64,000 nt of DNA from a virus (lineage: Duplodnaviria; Caudoviricetes): positions 1 through 64,000 of IMG/VR virus record IMGVR_UViG_3300028048_000066; one strand, given 5' to 3'. The notes below the pieces were generated by a model that was not told where the DNA came from, did no database searches, and saw only the letters and a program-made list of their open reading frames with translations. Both the position numbers and the translations under genes were made by a program. Shown piece by piece: positions 1,624 through 12,303 of this stretch. How positions within the stretch are numbered: position 1 is the stretch's first letter; each line of letters begins with the position of its first letter.

Positions 1624-1638
1624 TGCTAAATTAAATGA
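1624..1638 (+). promoter_or_regulatory. Putative phage late promoter TGCTAAATTAAATGA
   Basis: Exact 15-mer that recurs in intergenic gaps upstream of structural-region genes. Confidence 0.8.
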
Positions 1639-1661
1639 TAAAGAAGATACTAGGAGAACAT

Positions 1662-4600
1662 ATGAATCTTTTATTTGAAGGATTTAAGGACTATTATAAG
1701 AGGTTAGAAGAGGAATCTGGTGGTTCTTCTATTATTTATACTTACCAATCACCTAAAGTATTAAAACAATTGAAAAGTGGTAAAACATATATTGCTAATT
1801 ATGATAGAGGTATGATTGGCAAAGAACCATACATAGAACTAGCAAGAGTTTTAGGATTGAATGATTGTCCTATTTTTTGTGGTCTTACTATTGATGATAC
1901 AAATAGAATGCTTGAAGCAAGTGGATTAGAAAAATATGGAAAAGAATTATTAAAACTAAAAGTTCCAAATAAATACATTCACAAGATGGCATATTATGAT
2001 TGGACTGATTACATTTATTTTTGGATTGATAAACAAGAAGAAGACTATATATCAAAGGAAGATGCAGAAAATTCATTAAGAAATTTCTCTGGTCAAGCAC
2101 CTTGTCAAGTAGTTATAGATAGAATAGAACCTTCTTGGTTAGTTGATGAATCATTAACAGAAAGCGATGATAGTAAACAAATAAAATTAAATAATAATGT
2201 ATATGTATTTGTACCTATAGAAATGCTCTCTACAATTTCAAGAGAGGGACTTAAAGATTTTGTATTTTCTAATGTTTCTAATTTATCTAGTTTAAATAGT
2301 TTATTAAGATGGTATGATAAAAATCTTTATAAATTAGGAACTAATTTTAGTGGTATTGGTTATATTGTTGATGAGAAAAAATATATTCTATTAACAATAA
2401 ATAGCAGTAATTTAGATTATTCAAAAATCAAACCATATAATAAAAGTTGGTTAGAAGAATTATATTATTATGATGGGGTAGTGTCTTTTGATAATATAAA
2501 TGTAATTGATTCTATTGCAGGTAGTTGGGGAAGTTCAAACTGGATGTTTAAAAACAAAACCAAACATTATGACAACTTTGATTTTCTAGTGAATCAAGAA
2601 GAATTAAAAGAATTAAAAACTCAAGGAGATGTTCTTGACTATTTGATAAATCTTATATTATCAGATTTAGATGCTACATCAGCATTTTGTAATTTATATT
2701 ATCGTAGAATGGGAATTGATAATAATATGTATTTGTTTAGAAGGGAATCCGATAAAGAGCAAAAAAGAATATTAAAAAATATGTTCAGCGATAATATTGT
2801 AGAAATTAAAGGAAGGAAATCACCAGAGAACAGAAAACAAGTAGTTTATTTATATAGAGGAACATCGGAAAGAACTTTTAGCAAAAACTTTGAATCATAT
2901 GCTGGAATATTCTTTAGTACAAAAAGGAGTGCAGTATCTGGTTGGGGAGAAACTAAAAAATACTTACTAAAGAGTGATGCAAAAATTTATCGTGGTGATG
3001 ATTCTTCAGATAATTTTTGTAGTGCTTATTATAATAAAGAATATCCTGAGTTACAAAAATGCTTTGGTATGTATTTTGGAGATTTAAAAATTAAAAAGAT
3101 TTCGGATTTTTCAAAACTTACTAAAGAACAAAAAGATTATTTAGAGGATAGAGTAGAACAACAAGCAGGAACTCAATTCTGTTGGTATGATGTGTGGACT
3201 TGGTGTACTCAACTTGTCGCTAGAATTGAATTAGAAAAACAAGGATATGATGGTGCTTATTGGACACTTGAAGATTTTGGAAACCCAGAGCAATATCAAA
3301 TATGGAATCTTGATGCTGTTAAGTCTTATGATGGTGTCATTGAATCTATTAGTGAAGCGAAACAATCAAAACCAGAATTAGAAGTGGTTGATTATCGTGA
3401 TTGGACAGAACACACAAAGTTAAAAGATGTTTTAGATATTTGGTCATCCTATTATTATGTAGGTAAAAAGGCACTAAAAACACTACAGTTATTTCACGGA
3501 ACAACTGATTATAATTGGAAAAAGATAAAGAAAGCGGGTGCTATAAAACCAAAGAAATCAAAAAACTTTAATGCTTCTAAAAATGGTTGTGTTTATCTTA
3601 CTTATTCTGAAGATGATGCTTATGAGTTTGTAGGCAGAGCAACAGATTTCAATACTGGTGTTGTTGTTATGGAGATAGACATTAACAAACTAGACCTTGA
3701 TAAGTTATATATAGACACAAACATAGAAGAATACACAGTATATGAAGATGAAAACGGAAAAGAATACTGGGACTTTTGGGCATTTGAATATTATGGAGAA
3801 ATACCAGAAAATGCTTGGATAAATGTTGATATTGATGAATCTCTTAATGAATCTAAACAGGACACACTAAATTTCAAAAACTGGGTAGAAGATAAAGTAA
3901 GTGAACTTGGTATGAGAGATGGTGGTAATAAAGACTCATATGTAAACTCTTGGGTTAATGGATTTGAAAAGAATAGAAGCAGATTAAAAGCACCATTTAA
4001 TGACTACTATTATTGGATTAAACAAAATAACTGGGATGAATTTACAAAAGCATTCTCTGAGATAAGTAAGAAAGATGATACCAAACAAAAAGAGAAAGAA
4101 GGTGCTAAACTCTTATATAACAAAGATGATTGGAAAGTATATGAAATTACTACATATGAAGCAAGTGCTAAATATGGTAAGAATACTAAATGGTGTATAA
4201 GTGGTTCAAAGAGATGGAATAATGGTGAAAACGGAACTAAATACTGGAATGATTATACAAAACAAGGATGCAAGTTCTATTTCTTCATTAAAAACAACAC
4301 TGAAAAATATGCTTTAGTTGTATATCCAGATGATAAAGAGTATGAGATATTTAATCAAGATGATGTACCACTTGCTTATATACCAAATGCTCCAGATGTA
4401 AAAGAGATACCAGTAAACTATAATGAAGATGTTGATAGTGAATTAAAAGAGTTCACCAATTTATTTGTGCAACATAAATTACCTAATGAAGATTTTATTA
4501 TTGAGAATGTGATTGGAAAAATAAATGGTGACTGTGATGGTTATATGTTGTATATGTATAGTCCTAAAGATGCTTACAATGAATTTAGAGAAGATGTTCC

Positions 4601-5012
4601 AGATGATTATATTGAATACTATTTTGAAAACAACCACAGTTTTGATGATTGGGATGGTGATTTTCCATATTTAGTTAATTTTGATTATATTGTAGGCGAT
4701 ATGGAAAAACTAAATAGTGCAGAGGAGTTTTGGGAACTTACAAAGTCTGGTTTAAATAAATATAACTACTTTATATTTGCAGATGATAGTTGGGATGGAA
4801 ATTTTGAAGTGCACTGTCATACAAACTTTAGTGATGCTCTAATAAATATGTGGCAATTAAACTTTTGGTGTGATGGTAATTTTAGTGAGTTCATAAAAGA
4901 GTTTGCAAAATATTGTTTGAATGAGATTAAATGGTGGATAACAAAGACAGATGAAATTGATATACAACCATATCTCAATTTAGGGTTTACAGAAGAGTTT
5001 TTAACTAAATAA
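1662..5012 (+). CDS. Modular polyprotein: DUF3841-like, multiple ADP-ribosyltransferase-like domains, PcfJ-like domain
   Basis: Start moved from 1635 to the ATG at 1662 after AGGAG. Motifs LYRGT..GIFFS, LFHGT..GCVYLT and YEASAKYGKNTKWCIS. Modules are bounded by LEEES, VDESLTES, VIESISEA and IDESLNES. Confidence 0.7.
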   Translation: MNLLFEGFKDYYKRLEEESGGSSIIYTYQSPKVLKQLKSGKTYIANYDRGMIGKEPYIELARVLGLNDCPIFCGLTIDDTNRMLEASGLEKYGKELLKLKVPNKYIHKMAYYDWTDYIYFWIDKQEEDYISKEDAENSLRNFSGQAPCQVVIDRIEPSWLVDESLTESDDSKQIKLNNNVYVFVPIEMLSTISREGLKDFVFSNVSNLSSLNSLLRWYDKNLYKLGTNFSGIGYIVDEKKYILLTINSSNLDYSKIKPYNKSWLEELYYYDGVVSFDNINVIDSIAGSWGSSNWMFKNKTKHYDNFDFLVNQEELKELKTQGDVLDYLINLILSDLDATSAFCNLYYRRMGIDNNMYLFRRESDKEQKRILKNMFSDNIVEIKGRKSPENRKQVVYLYRGTSERTFSKNFESYAGIFFSTKRSAVSGWGETKKYLLKSDAKIYRGDDSSDNFCSAYYNKEYPELQKCFGMYFGDLKIKKISDFSKLTKEQKDYLEDRVEQQAGTQFCWYDVWTWCTQLVARIELEKQGYDGAYWTLEDFGNPEQYQIWNLDAVKSYDGVIESISEAKQSKPELEVVDYRDWTEHTKLKDVLDIWSSYYYVGKKALKTLQLFHGTTDYNWKKIKKAGAIKPKKSKNFNASKNGCVYLTYSEDDAYEFVGRATDFNTGVVVMEIDINKLDLDKLYIDTNIEEYTVYEDENGKEYWDFWAFEYYGEIPENAWINVDIDESLNESKQDTLNFKNWVEDKVSELGMRDGGNKDSYVNSWVNGFEKNRSRLKAPFNDYYYWIKQNNWDEFTKAFSEISKKDDTKQKEKEGAKLLYNKDDWKVYEITTYEASAKYGKNTKWCISGSKRWNNGENGTKYWNDYTKQGCKFYFFIKNNTEKYALVVYPDDKEYEIFNQDDVPLAYIPNAPDVKEIPVNYNEDVDSELKEFTNLFVQHKLPNEDFIIENVIGKINGDCDGYMLYMYSPKDAYNEFREDVPDDYIEYYFENNHSFDDWDGDFPYLVNFDYIVGDMEKLNSAEEFWELTKSGLNKYNYFIFADDSWDGNFEVHCHTNFSDALINMWQLNFWCDGNFSEFIKEFAKYCLNEIKWWITKTDEIDIQPYLNLGFTEEFLTK

Positions 5013-5235: not shown

Positions 5236-6804
5236 ATGATACCTAGAGAAAGAAGTATTAAAGAAAGAGATATTGAAGTAAAAGATGACAATATTGATGA
5301 AATTGAAGCAACAACATATGATGAATTATCTAAAATAGAAGATGAAACAATAGAAGAAGATGAGAATGCTATTGTTGATACTATTTATAAATTATCACAT
5401 ATTAGAGATATAGATGGAGAAGACACACCATCTTATTGTTTTGTTCACGACATTACAGATACATTTGGTTTAAGTGAAGATGAAGCAGTAGGAATTGCTA
5501 AAGACAATGGTTATGTTGTTTATGAGATTTTACCAAATGGGGATGTAGATAGTGGGTTAGTTATTGCAGATAGGGATTGTTCAAAAGATTTAATTAGCAC
5601 AGACTATGAGAAATTCTTTGGTGTAGAAATTGAAATCAAACCTTATGGAGAAGAAGTTGAAGATAAGGTTGAAGTAGAAGAAACACCAGATGAAATAGAA
5701 GTTGAGAAAGAAGTTGAAGTTAAAGATGAACCAGTAGAAGAAGCATTAGATAATATTAAGAATAATGATACTTGGGAAGAATCACTTAAAGAAGATAAAG
5801 GAAGTTTTGATTTAGTAAAAGAAATCACAACAGACCCAGATGCAGAGAAATATATTGCACAAAATGGTAAGACCTGTTATAGAGTATTTGGAACATTAAA
5901 TTGGTATTTCTATAAATGTGAACAAGCAGGAATTAAACCAGTTCAAGAAGATGATTTCTTATATACAGCAAAAGGAAATGGTTATGAATTTGATTGGGTA
6001 GAAGAAGATTGCATTTTAGCATTAGATAAACCATTAAAAGAGAGCAAAAAACTTAATGAAATGCACTCAGTTCAAGATTATAAGGGTTATGAACTTGATT
6101 TTAATGAAGATTCAATTCACGATATGTTAGAATTAGGTTTATCTAACTATGTTGATAAAGATTTAATAGAGATTACAAAAGATGGTAAACACATTGCTTG
6201 GGCAAAGAGTTATTCTGATGCTAGAAAGATTGTTGATGAAAAAACAAAAGAAGATGAAGTACAAAAACCAGAAGAACATCCTATCACAGTTATTTTTAGA
6301 ACTCTAGGTAATTATAAAGTAGGAGAAATAAAGAACACATTGCGTAGTTATCAAAAAGCAGTTGGTGGGTATATAGATGCTTTTGCTTTCCCAGGAAGAG
6401 ATGATATTGATATTGTTCATAGAGAATATGGAGATAAAAAAAATGAAGCATTAGTTATTGTAGGTCTTAATAAGGATACAAACTGTTGGTGCAGTCTAAC
6501 ACAAGAACAAATTGATTATGTAATGAATTATGTAAAAAATAATGTACTAGAGTCATATGGTGATAATGTTTTACATATTGGATTGCCTGTTACAATGAAT
6601 GGTGATAAATTAAAGAAATTCAACACAAAGAGTGGTATGGATAGATATAAAAACTCAAACAATGGTTACAGATTCCAATATTATAAAGTACCAAAAGATG
6701 AGTTCAAATATGCAAAGAAAGAAACAAAAGATGATGAACAAGCATTTTTCAAACTTCAAGATAGTGGAAGAGCAGTAGAAGAAGAAAAGAAAAATAACGA
6801 ATAA
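5236..6804 (+). CDS. Acidic modular polyprotein with a DUF3846-like module
   Basis: GGAG RBS. EIKNTLRSYQKAVGGYI..ALVIVG..SLTQEQID module. VEEA, EESLKED, LKES, LNEM and VLES motifs. Confidence 0.7.
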   Translation: MIPRERSIKERDIEVKDDNIDEIEATTYDELSKIEDETIEEDENAIVDTIYKLSHIRDIDGEDTPSYCFVHDITDTFGLSEDEAVGIAKDNGYVVYEILPNGDVDSGLVIADRDCSKDLISTDYEKFFGVEIEIKPYGEEVEDKVEVEETPDEIEVEKEVEVKDEPVEEALDNIKNNDTWEESLKEDKGSFDLVKEITTDPDAEKYIAQNGKTCYRVFGTLNWYFYKCEQAGIKPVQEDDFLYTAKGNGYEFDWVEEDCILALDKPLKESKKLNEMHSVQDYKGYELDFNEDSIHDMLELGLSNYVDKDLIEITKDGKHIAWAKSYSDARKIVDEKTKEDEVQKPEEHPITVIFRTLGNYKVGEIKNTLRSYQKAVGGYIDAFAFPGRDDIDIVHREYGDKKNEALVIVGLNKDTNCWCSLTQEQIDYVMNYVKNNVLESYGDNVLHIGLPVTMNGDKLKKFNTKSGMDRYKNSNNGYRFQYYKVPKDEFKYAKKETKDDEQAFFKLQDSGRAVEEEKKNNE

Positions 6805-7285: not shown

Positions 7286-10117
7286 ATGAAATTAGAAAAG
7301 GTAAATTTAAGAGAAAACAGAATCCTAACAGAAGGCACTAAGTATGATAAACAAGCAGCAAAGATACTTTCAGATTCTGGTTTATTTGATGCAGAAACAA
7401 GCGAAAAGATAATCAATGCTTTATTTAGAGAAGACATTCACGCATTTGTTCACGCACCTAACTGGTTAGAGAAATACTTAAAAGGTATTGCTAGAATGAT
7501 AGTTGAAGAATCAAACGGTGATACAAATAAAGCAAGAGAGTTCTTAATGGAATGTCCTAGTGTATTTGATGAGTATTTAACTTGGATTAGAGAAACTAGA
7601 GATAAAATAGAAGACCAAAAGGAAAAAGAAAAACTTGATGCTGAATTTGTAAACACTATGCATTATAAAGATGTAAAAGATACATTAGAAGATATTCAAG
7701 CACAAAGAGATGAGCAATCAAGACAAGAACTTGCAAATATGAAGTTCAAACAATCAGATTATACATTAGTTCCAATTGATTCATATGAGCAAATGCACGA
7801 CACATATGGTGGTCATTGGACTGGAGATGGTTCTTCTGATAAGTATGCTGGTGGTGGCGGAACTGCTTGGTGTCATACAAACAATAAAGGTGTATATGAC
7901 AGTTGGGTAAGTGGTGGAAATAAGTTCTTTGTATTGCAACATAACGACTGGAAAGATATACCATTCAACCCAAAAACAAATAAAGAAGAAAAAGGTAAGG
8001 ATGCTTATGGTAATTCTTTAATTGCTTTAAGAATATCTCCAAAAGGAAAGATACTAAATGCAACATTAAGATGTAACCACACAGGTGTTCCAGATTTAGC
8101 AGATAACCAATATCGTACTTATTCTGATTTATCAAAATTAGCAGGATTTAATGTTGAAGATGAAATGAAAAAATATTATGACATTAAACCGTTTGATATG
8201 AAGTCATTATTCAAAATAGATGGAAATGGCGTGATGAATCGTGACTATGATTATTATAGAGAGTGGGCAGAAGAGGGCAGTGAAATTACTAAGGTTGTAA
8301 TTCCAGATGGAGTTATAGCATTAGGTGATAGTGTATTTTCTGATTTTCGTTCACTAAAAGAGGTAAAACTTCCAAGCAGTCTTAAAATAATTGGTAGTAA
8401 TGCCTTTTATAATTGTAGTAGTTTAGAGAACATAGACTTACAAGGAATTGAAGTTATTGATGAATATGCTTTTAGAGGATGTAGGCAATTAAGTGCTATT
8501 ACACTTCCAAGCACCATAACAACACTTGAAAATGGTATATTTAATAATTGTGAAAAATTAAAGAGCATAAATATTGAGTGTAGTTTGACTGAATTACCTG
8601 CAGGCATTTTCTATTACTGCTCAGGTTTAGAGTCTATACAATTACCTGAAACATTGGAACTTATTGGAAATGCAGCATTAGGTGGAACAAGCATAAAAGA
8701 GATAACAATTCCAAACGGGGTTACAATTATAGCAGATAATGCATTTGTTTCTTGTAAGAATTTAGAAAAAATAAATTTACCAGAAGGTTTAAAGAGCATT
8801 GGTCGTTCTGCATTTTCTGGTGATGTTTTATTAACTGAAATTGATATTCCTGCTGGTGTCACTACTATTGGGGCTGAAGCATTCCTGGGGAGTGGAATTA
8901 AAAAAATAAATCTTCCTGCTGGAATAAAAGAAATTCCATACTGTGCATTTAATAATAGTGCTATTAGTGAAATTGAGATTCCAAATGGTGTTGAATCAAT
9001 TGGTGAGAGGGCATTCTCCTCATCTTCTCTTATAAAAGTAACAATACCAAGTTCTGTTAAAAAAATAGAAAGTGGAGCATTCTATTATTCATCATTAGAA
9101 GGGACTCTTAAATTACCAGAAGGACTTAATGAAATTGGTGATTATGCATTTAATAGTTGTTCAAACTTAACAGAAATTGAAGTACCAAACAGTGTAAACA
9201 AACTTGTTGGTAATCCATTTGATTGGCATACTATAATAAGAACAGACAATGATTATGTGGTTGAATATTGTATAAATAGAGGCCTTACAGTTGTATCTGA
9301 AAATCAACCAAAAGGAAGACCATATGTAATTTATACAAGAGATGATTATTTAAGAAAATATGGTGATGAAGATATTTCTTTTGAAGATTTTGTAGACAAA
9401 GCATTAAAAGAAATCTATAAGAAATTAGCATTTGTACAAGTTGATAAAGACACATATAACATTGTTGGTAGAAACTTTGTAGATGCTTCTAAACTTCAAA
9501 CATTATTAAAGCATCTTACATCTGGTGATAGAGAAGATGGATATGAAGTTAGATATATTAACAATGAAAATGAATCACTAAATTCAAATGAAAAAACAGA
9601 ACAACTTCAAGAAAAGATTGTAAAGAAGGGTTCTAAATATCAAGTACAAAGTGAAAAAGGAAGAAATCTTGGAACTTATGATACAAAAGAAGAAGCAGAG
9701 AAGAGATTAAAACAAGTAGAGTACTTTAAGCATAAAGATGATATTAAAGAAGCAGTACAAGACCAACCTCTAAAGTCTAATGGAATTTATTCAGTAAAAG
9801 AAGATAAATGGATAAAAGAACCAGTACAAACAGATATTCCAGATATTGACTATGATGCTTTTGAAGAACAATTCAAGGGTTGGGAAGATAGATATTTTGA
9901 TTTAGTAGAGAATGCAGGAGTATCTAATGTAGAAAAGATAGCAGAGATTGAGAACTTAATTGAAGACTTATATAATTTAAGAAAAGAAAGTCTTGCAAAA
10001 GATGGAGAGTATGCTATAGGAAATCTAGTATTTAAAGAAGCAAGAAACTTAGGATACCTAGATGAATTAAAAGAATTAAAAAACGAGTTAAAGAGTAAAG
10101 AATTAAGTTTAGAATAA
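7286..10117 (+). CDS. Polyprotein: PcfJ-like, BspA-type leucine-rich repeats, small beta-beta-alpha module, C-terminal half of the nucleotidyltransferase
   Basis: TAWCHT motif; about 23-aa LP..L..IG..AF..C..L..I repeats (about 8280-9230); C-terminal SNGIYS..KWIKEP..RKESLAKDGEYAIGNLVFKEARNLGYL. Confidence 0.75.
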   Translation: MKLEKVNLRENRILTEGTKYDKQAAKILSDSGLFDAETSEKIINALFREDIHAFVHAPNWLEKYLKGIARMIVEESNGDTNKAREFLMECPSVFDEYLTWIRETRDKIEDQKEKEKLDAEFVNTMHYKDVKDTLEDIQAQRDEQSRQELANMKFKQSDYTLVPIDSYEQMHDTYGGHWTGDGSSDKYAGGGGTAWCHTNNKGVYDSWVSGGNKFFVLQHNDWKDIPFNPKTNKEEKGKDAYGNSLIALRISPKGKILNATLRCNHTGVPDLADNQYRTYSDLSKLAGFNVEDEMKKYYDIKPFDMKSLFKIDGNGVMNRDYDYYREWAEEGSEITKVVIPDGVIALGDSVFSDFRSLKEVKLPSSLKIIGSNAFYNCSSLENIDLQGIEVIDEYAFRGCRQLSAITLPSTITTLENGIFNNCEKLKSINIECSLTELPAGIFYYCSGLESIQLPETLELIGNAALGGTSIKEITIPNGVTIIADNAFVSCKNLEKINLPEGLKSIGRSAFSGDVLLTEIDIPAGVTTIGAEAFLGSGIKKINLPAGIKEIPYCAFNNSAISEIEIPNGVESIGERAFSSSSLIKVTIPSSVKKIESGAFYYSSLEGTLKLPEGLNEIGDYAFNSCSNLTEIEVPNSVNKLVGNPFDWHTIIRTDNDYVVEYCINRGLTVVSENQPKGRPYVIYTRDDYLRKYGDEDISFEDFVDKALKEIYKKLAFVQVDKDTYNIVGRNFVDASKLQTLLKHLTSGDREDGYEVRYINNENESLNSNEKTEQLQEKIVKKGSKYQVQSEKGRNLGTYDTKEEAEKRLKQVEYFKHKDDIKEAVQDQPLKSNGIYSVKEDKWIKEPVQTDIPDIDYDAFEEQFKGWEDRYFDLVENAGVSNVEKIAEIENLIEDLYNLRKESLAKDGEYAIGNLVFKEARNLGYLDELKELKNELKSKELSLE

Positions 10118-10155: not shown

Positions 10156-12303
10156 ATGTCAAAAGAAGTAAAGAAAAGCAATGTAAAGGAATTACCTGGT
10201 CTTAATGGCAATGCTTATTCTGCAAGTAGATATTTATATACAAACATCAAGAAAAGACCTTTAGTAGTTGAATCAAAGAAACAAAAGAAGTTAAATGAAA
10301 AGATTACTTATGAGTTTGATGATAATGGTGGAATTATTGTTTTATCTACTGATGTAAATGCACAACAACTTTCACAAAACAAGTTAATGAATTGGATTAA
10401 GAAGAAAGTTGCAACATTAAAGAATAGAGTTAGTGCAGATAAAAACATCAAGAATGCGGTACTTAATAATGTTCCAGAAACAGGTTGGACAGTAGGTAAG
10501 TATTTAAGAGGAAGATACCACGCAGCAGATGGTAGTGATTTTGATGAAAACTCATTATCAGTTGAATTACTTGGACTACCTACAGATGTTTTAGTTAGTA
10601 TTGCAGAGGACTTATGTAATGAGTTCAAGCAAGAATCAGTTATAGTTAAAGACTACAATAAAAACAAAGTATATATTGTAAATGGTGAAAAAGAGGTAAA
10701 AGAGGAAAGTATGAACGAAGATTATTGGCAAAACACAAGTCACTCAGCAAGAGTTAGAGAGTATGAAGATGGAACAAAAGAGTTATATTCTTATGGAACA
10801 CTTATTGCAACAATCAAACCAGATGGAGATGTTGAATTAACAAGATATTGGGACTATTCCAGAACAACAGGACAACACTTAAGAGATTTCTTGAGAAAGT
10901 ATGGCATTGGAAATTATGGTGCATCTAAAGATATTTACAATGACCTTATAAGAAAGAGAAAGGTAAAGACAGATAACATTGAATTAAGAAAAGCATCAGC
11001 ACTAGACAATGCAATAGAGTGTATTAGATTTGGTGATGGTGATAAAGATGAATGTGACTGGTGTGGACTAAGTGAAAAAGACTTTGATGAAATTTGGAAA
11101 CAAGCAAAGAAAGAAGTAAGAGAATTAAATAAGAAAAAGAAAAATAATACAAATAAGAAGGAAGATAAAGAAATGAAAGAAGCAAAGTACACACAAAGAC
11201 CAGAGAAGTTAATCAAAGAGTCTAAAGATGAGTTTGATATTAAAGACTATTTAGACATTGAGTTAGAAGATGATAATTCAGGTGAAGGTGGAATTGAGTT
11301 TGAAGGTGAAACCGTAAGAGATTTTATTGGATATTGTGGTTATGATGAAGATGGAAATTTTGATGTAGAAAATGCAGATGAATATTGTAAACCAATAACA
11401 TCATTGAAGCAATTAAATAAAGAATTAAAGGACTGTGGTATTAAACCTTTGAAATCAAAGAAATCCATTAAAGAAGATTTTGAAGATGTTGAGTACGAAG
11501 AAGAAATTGAGTTTTTTGGTGGTGATGAAGGTGATTTAGATGTAGAAGACTTCATAAGTGAAAACGAAGATTGGTTATCATCTGATTATGAAGATTATTA
11601 CTATGACTGGGATGATTATAGAAAGGGATATGTTTTATATGGTATAGTTAATAAAGTTAAAGATTTGTCTGATGATGAATTACTTGATTATATTGTAGAC
11701 AACTTTGAAGAAATTACAGGTAAACCAGTAGATGTTGTATATAATGAGTATGATGAGAATGATGATGCACAACCAATATTTGACCAAGATGGAATTGATG
11801 CAACAAGTGATAAAATAAGAGATTTCTTGTCAACAATAGCAAAAAAATCAGATAGAGAAATTGATGATTTATTTTATAAGTTAGATGATATTTTGACAGA
11901 TAGATTGTCTGAATCTTGTGAAAAGAAGTCAATTAAAGAAGGTAGAGCACAAATTTATCAAGATATGGAAGATGAGTACTTTGATGCATTAGCAAAAGCA
12001 GAAAAAAGTGGAAATGTAGAATACTGCGTTTTAACAGATACAGATGAAGAATGCTTTGGTAATTTTAAAAAGGCAGTTGAATTTGCAAAGAAAAATGGTG
12101 TAGATGAAATTGAAATCAAACCTTTTACAGTCAATCTTGGATACAACTATTTCTTAGATGATTATGACACAGAAGATTACAAAGGTGTTATTGTTGATTT
12201 AGATATGAATATTATTGATTATCTTGATGAGTCTTGCAAATCAAAGAAACTTACAAAGAAAGTAGTAAGAGAGAGCAAAGCAAATAAAAACAATAAGAAA
12301 TAA
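10156..12303 (+). CDS. Acidic modular polyprotein, candidate internal virion protein
   Basis: GAGGT RBS; many [ILVM]xE[SADG] sites; modules include ..LCNEFKQESVIVKD and LYSYGTLIA..YSRTTGQH. Confidence 0.75.
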   Translation: MSKEVKKSNVKELPGLNGNAYSASRYLYTNIKKRPLVVESKKQKKLNEKITYEFDDNGGIIVLSTDVNAQQLSQNKLMNWIKKKVATLKNRVSADKNIKNAVLNNVPETGWTVGKYLRGRYHAADGSDFDENSLSVELLGLPTDVLVSIAEDLCNEFKQESVIVKDYNKNKVYIVNGEKEVKEESMNEDYWQNTSHSARVREYEDGTKELYSYGTLIATIKPDGDVELTRYWDYSRTTGQHLRDFLRKYGIGNYGASKDIYNDLIRKRKVKTDNIELRKASALDNAIECIRFGDGDKDECDWCGLSEKDFDEIWKQAKKEVRELNKKKKNNTNKKEDKEMKEAKYTQRPEKLIKESKDEFDIKDYLDIELEDDNSGEGGIEFEGETVRDFIGYCGYDEDGNFDVENADEYCKPITSLKQLNKELKDCGIKPLKSKKSIKEDFEDVEYEEEIEFFGGDEGDLDVEDFISENEDWLSSDYEDYYYDWDDYRKGYVLYGIVNKVKDLSDDELLDYIVDNFEEITGKPVDVVYNEYDENDDAQPIFDQDGIDATSDKIRDFLSTIAKKSDREIDDLFYKLDDILTDRLSESCEKKSIKEGRAQIYQDMEDEYFDALAKAEKSGNVEYCVLTDTDEECFGNFKKAVEFAKKNGVDEIEIKPFTVNLGYNYFLDDYDTEDYKGVIVDLDMNIIDYLDESCKSKKLTKKVVRESKANKNNKK

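Follow-up and report, generated by a model that had tools for sequence, protein, structure and literature searches.

The first 64,000 nucleotides of the complete virus genome IMGVR_UViG_3300028048_000066 (Duplodnaviria; Caudoviricetes; 148,163 bp with direct terminal repeats), hereafter the window, contain at positions 1662–5012 an open reading frame (ORF) whose product raises a double question: what kinds of domain are chained together in one long phage protein, and how would such a chain be put to use? The answer favoured here, to which we give a probability of about 0.6, is that the gene belongs to a T4-like myovirus, is expressed late and encodes a polyprotein carried as cargo in the head, which would be a variant of the phage "polyvalent proteins". 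Three folds of the ADP-ribosyltransferase (ART) superfamily, each from a different family, appear to be joined in it: a DUF3841-related domain, an Arg variant resembling ART-PolyVal, and a domain resembling the lobe of Tpt1/KptA that binds nicotinamide adenine dinucleotide (NAD). An original prediction, made from the letters of the DNA alone, had described three to four tandem ART-like folds plus a PcfJ-like domain, acting as a concatenated multi-ART warhead, each domain perhaps with a target of its own; several ART-superfamily folds in one chain are indeed recovered (modules A, C and D below), whereas the ART reading of module B and the PcfJ-like reading of module E are not supported.

The frame is open on the + strand across 1635..5012, and an AGGAG lies 7 nt 5' of the ATG at 1662, a spacing that favours this codon as the start of a protein of 1,116 aa; the public gene call P0002 is the identical protein and also begins at ATG 1662. 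Residues are numbered here as in P0001 (the frame begun at 1635), so that the number in the actual protein is the P0001 number minus 9. Direct scans of the whole protein and of its single modules against Pfam and PHROG gave no significant match, a phmmer search of PDB sequences gave none, and tblastn against 50,697 phage records returned a sole weak match, to part of E, in Salicola phage SCTP-2. A modular structure emerged from BLAST comparison with 19 large mosaic relatives combined with HMMER (the exhaustive HMMER search covered aa 1-736 against 1.84 billion representatives), which resolved five segments, with A at ~24-171, B at 176-395, C at ~396-566, D at ~590-730 and E at 737-1125; the final borders are aa 28-172 for A, 178-567 for B+C, 576-732 for D and 741-1125 for E. 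The borders predicted earlier (1719-2138, 2166-3335, 3360-3830 and 3855-5012) agree almost to the residue with those drawn from mosaic homology and with troughs in the predicted local distance difference test (pLDDT) of the AlphaFold models, and all the sequence strings quoted with them are present. Stand-alone proteins of 100-200 aa exist elsewhere for A, C and D each, which indicates that these are autonomous domains, and the modules recur in other order in other giant proteins, at least four of the five independently. Near-invariant polar residues are found in the families of A, C and D alike. With its five modules the polypeptide exceeds the two unrelated effector-type domains that define a phage polyvalent protein. 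A similar hydrophobic C-terminal strand, said to close three of the modules, is seen qualitatively, in that every folded module closes with a beta-strand in the AlphaFold models. A homolog of the ORF with 82% identity, P0003, is also available.

Module D gives the strongest of the three folds. Its 30 relatives include members that match PTS_2-RNA (Tpt1/KptA; 8/16) and PARP (three), and also DUF3990, ART-PolyVal, DUF952 and Arr, and a search of PDB sequences with the family profile reached the NAD lobe in the Tpt1 entry 8tfz (E 4e-4), with the LYHGT and VHLS/VYLT motifs aligned. In the AlphaFold model of C+D (aa 381-736, mean pLDDT 80), D superposes by VIA on KptA 9ld3_A with a Z of 11.4 and a root-mean-square deviation (rmsd) of 2.3 Å over 93 residues at 24% identity, and about 45 more ART-superfamily rows follow KptA in the list; Foldseek, the comparison that had been proposed for this module, likewise returned Tpt1 (E 6e-4) with a superposable ART core. 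The His, Tyr and Glu positions of strands 1, 2 and 5 are filled in the model, by H621 (28/28 in the family), Y654 (29/30) and E718 (Glu in 19/27, Gln or Asp in six), and T623 and D694-x-N696 are essentially invariant. As modelled, D is thus an H-Y-E ART fold, and the earlier ART reading of this module holds. D is not a Tpt1 orthologue by sequence, since it aligns solely to chain residues 86-180 of KptA/Tpt1, which form the NAD lobe, and scores 11.9 bits against PF01885, far under the cut-off of 26; about 40 residues precede the aligned part after the junction. Three residues of the Tpt1 Arg-His-Arg-Arg tetrad are located in the N-terminal RNA lobe. D resembles the NAD-binding C-terminal lobe of Tpt1/KptA (PF01885; PDB 9ld3, 8tfz, 7yw2) and shares its LYHGT and VHLS/VYLT motifs, but it does not have the N-terminal RNA-binding lobe, hence these three residues cannot be present. 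To our knowledge, Tpt1 is not known for the conserved Glu/Gln or for the invariant D-x-N seen in D.

Module C, with 32 relatives, was compared by hhalign with a profile built from those ART-PolyVal domains of the relatives that Pfam confirms, and the two matched at 96.5% (E 9e-10) over 139 columns when a bridging segment of P0079 was present in both, and at 87% over the N-terminal 34 columns only when it was left out. The two profiles are colinear (YRG~YHG, GxFFa~xxFt, a helical insert, GYDG~GYDG, QIWN..IK~f..nQIK), and an expanded ART-PolyVal hidden Markov model (HMM) matches P0001 at aa 404-566 (E 7e-5). A narrow HMM of six sequences gave no match to P0001; neither did PF18760 (gathering cut-off 31.2 bits) against P0001 at E<=1 or against module C alone at E<=10, and this Pfam model touches 2/13 C-family members, at a best E of 8e-4. 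The column that holds the strand-1 His of ART-PolyVal (H-Y-D) is Arg in 26/27 members and His in one, and the Asp column of GYDG is retained in 31/32. Y407-R408-G409 and F426 are conserved, and Y538-D539-G540, E546-D547 and Q553-Y554-Q555 are invariant. These comparisons lead us to regard C, at the level of sequence, as a sister of ART-PolyVal in which Arg replaces the strand-1 His. It is not a canonical R-S-E ART (Arg in strand 1, Ser-Thr-Ser in strand 2, Glu-x-Glu before strand 5), since the Ser of its "GIFFST" is not conserved in the family: the strand-2 position is A, S or G in 12, 8 and 8 of 32 members, and an acidic pair, E546-D547, stands where no E-x-E is found.

The model of C is confident (pLDDT 85-97) and matches AcrIF11 (6kyf), by Foldseek with E 1.9e-3, probability 1.0 and TMt 0.50, and by VIA with Z 5.6 over 111 aa. 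This is the only informative solved match to C, the remaining rows of the joint C+D list being taken by D; a match to the cyanophage A4 pre-ejectosome (Z 5.5, rmsd 6.7 Å) was set aside as uninformative, as it concerns a large helical ejection protein in whose paper no ART is described, and the C profile had no meaningful match among PDB sequences. AcrIF11, an experimentally proven ART of phages and plasmids that modifies Csy1, resembles C in its small ART core with a variable helical insert, and its essential loop acidic pair D115/E116 would correspond to the invariant E546/D547. On the other hand, AcrIF11 has a strand-1 His where C has Arg, the two are 13% identical and no sequence-level relationship was detected between them. 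The ART reading first given to the LYRGT..GIFFST part is in this way upheld as ART-PolyVal-like, by profile comparison and by the AcrIF11 match. Several BFVD matches of the C+D model carry the annotation "PolyVal ADP-ribosyltransferase". This model also matched at least seven small paralogs of Bacillus phage G (gp610, gp336, gp568, gp233, gp532, gp53 and gp251), and in the same database PBS1, SP-15 and Vibrio phage nt-1 have proteins with predicted structures similar to C or D.

For module A, 59 relatives were found by sequence search, and PF12952 (DUF3841) was matched by 17/29 of the stand-alone ones (best E 2.8e-6). The module itself reaches 14.7-15.2 bits (E 0.017-0.025), below the gathering cut-off of 27 bits, so that A is related to DUF3841 at the family level as judged from sequence, without being a formal member, and the "DUF3841-like" label given to it earlier holds in this sense; no mention of DUF3841 was met in the literature searched. 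Its model has a pLDDT above 90 over aa 30-170. The best VIA matches are CC0527/DUF952 (Z 6.7), BC2332 (6.5), TreX (6.0) and TreTu (5.9), with DarT (5.9 over 133 residues), KptA (5.7) and then PltA, LT, pertussis S1 and RES; ART-superfamily chains take about 35 of the 50 best rows, spanning aa 28-177. Foldseek placed pertussis S1, cholera toxin and Tpt1 first, at E ~0.02 (best 0.018), and the A profile had no meaningful match among PDB sequences. Since the Z values are middling, an ART-like fold for A is only probable on the strength of its model. Conserved residues are T36, Q38, F81, Y120-Y121, W123, D125 and Q158; the positions that match H/Y/E of ARTs are occupied by T36 (with Q38), F81 and Q158, all near-invariant, and canonical transferase chemistry appears doubtful for this reason.

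The composition of A's site bears on the possibility that not all of the ART-like folds are enzymes: at least one, A in particular, could be a pseudo-enzyme that binds a ligand or serves as a decoy (for example by sequestering NAD+, ADP-ribose or some defence signal), with only D and perhaps C being catalytic. We consider this quite possible, though we lean against it. It agrees with the absence of a strand-1 His or Arg in A, with Gln in place of the catalytic Glu in 48/53 members and with the modest fold matches, and it is compatible with a packaged cargo chain. However, T36, Q38, D125 and Q158 hardly vary among 59 diverse sequences, as would be expected of an active or binding site, and the Q158 column is Glu in five members.

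The other two modules received no assignment. For B, the search among 1.84 billion representatives returned P0002 and P0003 only, which are near-identical proteins, and the model has a pLDDT of 27-50 for aa 173-316 and of 60-80 for the helices of aa 320-390; the latter gave generic helical VIA matches (Z <=5.3) and are partly common to an upstream extension of C-type modules. A "Tpt1/ART-like part" had been placed at 2166 to ~2560; with two near-identical homologs, a pLDDT of 27-50 and a similarity to D that is not significant, this assignment is not supported. B was also considered as a degenerate copy of D, for which only an hhalign value of 9% and an HMM match of E 2.1 over ~20 residues could be cited, and the local alignment score of B with D (30) is under the shuffle mean (33). 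The ESM Atlas look-up gave no usable match for B or for E.

E has at least 60 relatives and frequently stands first among the domains of polyvalent or BspA leucine-rich repeat (LRR) proteins. The conserved core of its first part, E1, reads SPxNDxYYWIK ... WKVYEITTYEASxKYGxxTKWCISG ... FYFFI, and two further copies of E1 occur in the genome. Searches of E against Pfam and the PDB found no match, its profile found nothing meaningful among PDB sequences, and its PHROG matches are to families of unknown function only. The "PcfJ-like" call made for E is not sustained: PF14284 has no match in the genome at E<=10, none in 29 E-family members and none in 13 E-bearing large relatives, and hhalign against PcfJ of pCF10 gives 0.1%.

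The joints between the modules suggest how such a chain might be processed. The three doublets of Table 1 (VDESLTES, VIESISEA and IDESLNES), which fall in disordered linkers of pLDDT<50, are the sole [ILVM]xE[SADG] doublets in the protein, and shuffled versions contain a mean of 0.017, three being reached in 0/20,000 shuffles; the "protease-like sites" noticed earlier between the modules are accordingly real and non-random at A/B, C/D and D/E, that is, at three of four junctions. In the relatives, a site lies <=30 aa upstream at 57/90 internal domain starts compared with 21% of random positions (p 1e-17), and E1 nearly always begins directly after h-x-E, as E↓[SA]-K-x-D (arrow, putative cut), whether internal or behind a short leader. 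P0003 carries, at aa 726-875, an extra 138-aa module exactly at the D/E joint, flanked by LNE↓SKQ and LIE↓SKQ, and nine or more other proteins also contain this module, among them P0004 (twice), P0064, P0059, P0024, P0021, P0032 and P0009. The genome also supplies a candidate enzyme: the ORF at genome positions 139766-141352 (529 aa) fuses a gp21-type protease domain to a long K/E-rich, coiled-coil-like scaffold tail and contains 12 [ILVM]xE[SADG] sites, including VIES, LNES and a VIES-LKEA doublet, which amounts to 2.3 per 100 aa compared with a genome median of 0.48, and an LNE↓A is present at residue 46-49 of the capsid protein. From these sequences we infer that the [ILVM]xE-S/A motif is the cutting site of the phage's own prohead protease.

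These sites could also be read as flexible linkers, the acidic h-x-E-S stretches merely tolerating domain shuffling in a polyvalent protein that is packaged and injected, or acts, intact. N4 vRNAP, ArdC and TraC1 do travel intact (PMC5512222), the B/C junction has no good site, and cleavage of the chain is itself deduced. We nevertheless find an unprocessed chain unlikely: the doublets are found at junctions only, the same tetrapeptides crowd the scaffold-like tail of the protease and mark the capsid propeptide, E1 begins exactly after h-x-E both internally and behind the short leader of stand-alone genes, and small separate genes encode these modules behind leaders that look cleavable.

The genomic setting is that of a T4-type virion. 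Window genes are all on the + strand (G+C ~30%) and encode a tail sheath, head-tail adaptor, DNA polymerase, DnaB, primase, UvsX and NrdD, and the pair expected of T4-type head cargo is present in the same genome, namely a gp21-family prohead protease (PF03420, 53 bits, E 1.9e-15) and a gp23-family capsid protein (PF07068, 108 bits, E 2.7e-32), both near the right end. Counted across the terminal repeat, these two genes are ~10 kb upstream of the ORF, which is placed between the head genes (139-144 kb) and the neck/tail genes. The ORF is preceded by the 13-mer TGCTAAATTAAAT, of which exact copies are found seven times in the window (1624, 5189, 10119, 12382, 19823, 21805 and 30699) and 17 times in the genome, on the + strand only and every one 23-80 nt before a start codon; the genes behind it include those for the prohead protease/scaffold, head-tail adaptor, tail sheath and other polyvalent ORFs, and the 13-mer is a candidate late promoter of structural and cargo genes. 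A head-gene neighbourhood and a common promoter-like element, as expected of polyvalent proteins of the phage type, are thus both present, and packaging would be in keeping with them. A hairpin-like inverted repeat with a T-run at 1585-1615, between the upstream gene (433-1560) and the 13-mer, resembles in sequence an intrinsic terminator.

The protein opens with a leader, MNLLFEGFKDYYKRLEEE, that is predicted to be helical and has lower pLDDT ahead of domain A. A near-identical leader, MKNILFEGFKNYYKKLEEG, opens the gene at genome positions 142858-144180, directly after the major capsid gene, and is followed there by an E1-like domain (E 3e-18); no third leader of this kind occurs in the genome, and related ones are found in P0003 and P0121. 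The T4 internal proteins carry the capsid-targeting sequence (CTS) MKTYQEFIAE (PMC8442874), and P0119, a stand-alone D homolog of 145 aa, begins with MKTYKEYINE, 7/10 identical to it.

T4 ModA and ModB are ARTs that act without being packaged. A similar role may be imagined here, the protein acting late in the infected cell by modifying host or phage macromolecules or by countering NAD-based abortive infection, and it would accommodate both the position of the gene 1.6 kb from the genome end and the fact that packaging is deduced. This seems to us less likely still than an unprocessed chain, considering that the gene lies between head and neck/tail genes with a 13-mer common to both, that its leader is common to the gene adjoining the capsid gene and that relatives have leaders resembling the T4 CTS.

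Taken together, the doublets, the internal sites in the protease tail, the leader, the 13-mer and the T4 precedent are best read as pointing to a cargo polyprotein that is packaged and has protease sites as joints. Under this proposal, the N-terminal leader would dock the chain in the prohead core, as the T4 CTS does, and the prohead protease would cleave after Glu at the junctions to give about four pieces (A, B+C, D and E), which would remain in the head and be injected together with the DNA, like Alt and the internal proteins of T4. C and D might then use NAD+ to ADP-ribosylate host targets, whether protein or nucleic acid, as soon as infection begins, and A, in which the canonical His/Arg and Glu are missing, may for that reason bind an NAD- or ADP-ribose-type ligand or have a different chemistry.

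Several points weigh against this proposal. Cleavage, packaging, NAD binding and transferase activity are all drawn from sequence and predicted structure, and in sequence the leader of the ORF itself is unlike the T4 CTS. At the B/C junction there is just one, weaker site, IVE↓I; [ILVM]xE is short and the proteome rich in E and K, and the junction windows were delimited in part after the sequence had been viewed. The link between C and ART-PolyVal shrinks to the N-terminal third without the bridging sequence, and the sole informative PDB match of C has a Z of 5.6. The fold matches of A are middling (Z <=6.7) and its catalytic His/Arg and Glu are missing. Additionally, E, which makes up 35% of the protein, is without an assigned function.

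Multi-ART polyvalent proteins are already known, so the concept is not new; ART is their commonest catalytic domain, in 1-12 copies per protein (Iyer, Burroughs, Anand, de Souza and Aravind, 2017; PMC5512222). The ORF resembles them as a large phage protein of unrelated effector domains encoded beside head genes, and its direct relatives carry 1-4 Pfam-confirmed PF18760 copies, as does a 2,037-aa ORF of the same genome. Unlike the published examples, it has no domain that passes the PF18760 threshold and no in-cis peptidase; instead, it appears to have ART-like folds of three other lineages and, at its junctions, the motif of a T4-type prohead protease that a separate gene encodes. In T4, the CTS directs Alt and the internal proteins to the head, gp21 cleaves them after Glu, and they are injected (PMC5694885, PMC3012670). 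A gp21/gp23-type head, probable late expression, an N-terminal leader, cut-after-Glu motifs and, for Alt, putative ART chemistry are points of likeness between the ORF and Alt or the internal proteins IPI-III, but these are single effectors that lose only an N-terminal propeptide, whereas the ORF would release several effectors, and no similarity to Alt itself was seen in fold or sequence. In giant phages of the phiKZ/SPN3US type, a gp21-related protease cuts many head-internal proteins after Glu, sometimes at several sites each (PMC5694885); those substrates differ in that they are not described as chains of independent enzymes and in that their motif is A/S/G-x-E, not [ILVM]-x-E.

What appears specific to this locus is the occurrence of three non-canonical ART lineages in one chain, as read from sequence and models, including an Arg variant of ART-PolyVal, together with model-based evidence at the fold level that a DUF3841-related family is ART-like, internal controls for the protease motif, and a common leader. 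If the proposal is correct, one late gene would deliver three NAD-using or NAD-binding domains into the host at DNA entry; the model of T4 Alt and the internal proteins would be widened from single cargo to protease-released multi-enzyme chains, and the swapping of effector cassettes at fixed joints would be explained. It would also give handles on three uncharacterised families, namely the DUF3841-related one, the ART-PolyVal variant with Arg, and a Tpt1-like ART of one lobe only. A bolder version, which we think improbable as a whole, would have plug-and-play cargo made of a leader and h-x-E↓S-K joints, the DUF3841 type as a catalytic ART branch with a T/F/Q site and non-canonical NAD/ADP-ribose chemistry, and E1 as a common head-core docking domain.

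Table 1. Features of the ORF and of the region directly upstream (window positions; aa, residues in P0001 numbering; arrow, putative cut).
Feature	Position	Strand	Description
Promoter-like 13-mer TGCTAAATTAAAT	1624..1636	+	38 nt 5' of the start codon
N-terminal leader MNLLFEGFKDYYKRLEEE	1662..1715	+	aa 10-27; candidate capsid-targeting propeptide, end L-E-E-E↓S
Module A	1716..2150	+	DUF3841-related domain, ART-like fold by model
Junction 1 (A/B)	2142..2165	+	VDES-LTES doublet, aa 170-177; within the pLDDT<50 segment 173-189
Module B	2166..2819	+	aa 178-395; orphan; N-terminal ~140 aa without recognised fold; aa 320-390 helical
Module C	2820..3335	+	aa 396-567; ART-PolyVal-like, Arg for His; helical insert aa 458-535
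Junction 2 (C/D)	3336..3359	+	VIES-ISEA doublet, aa 568-575; within the pLDDT<50 segment aa 568-586
Module D	3360..3830	+	aa 576-732; H-Y-E ART domain by model, nearest the NAD lobe of Tpt1/KptA
Junction 3 (D/E)	3831..3854	+	IDES-LNES doublet, aa 733-740; E begins S740-K-Q-D
Module E	3855..5012	+	E1 aa ~741-930 and E2 aa 931-1125

Other large ORFs of the genome show similar constructions. The second polyvalent ORF (genome positions 125623-131733), that of 2,037 aa, has three or four ART-PolyVal copies (E to 1.5e-21) and E1 (E 1e-44) and is preceded by TGCTAAATTAAAT, and a 667-aa ORF at 131717-133717 contains a second C-type domain at aa 207-364 (E 1e-26); when all ORFs are counted, about eight ART-type domains lie around the head genes of this phage. 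The large ORFs that neighbour the gene at 5236-6804, 7286-10117 and 10156-12303 also resemble cargo chains. Matches among the neighbouring ORFs include DUF3846 (E 1.2e-7) and a 943-aa LRR protein of the BspA type (LRR_5, E 1.8e-84), and a 715-aa neighbouring ORF has weak matches to S-adenosylmethionine (SAM) lyase and to a methyltransferase PHROG.

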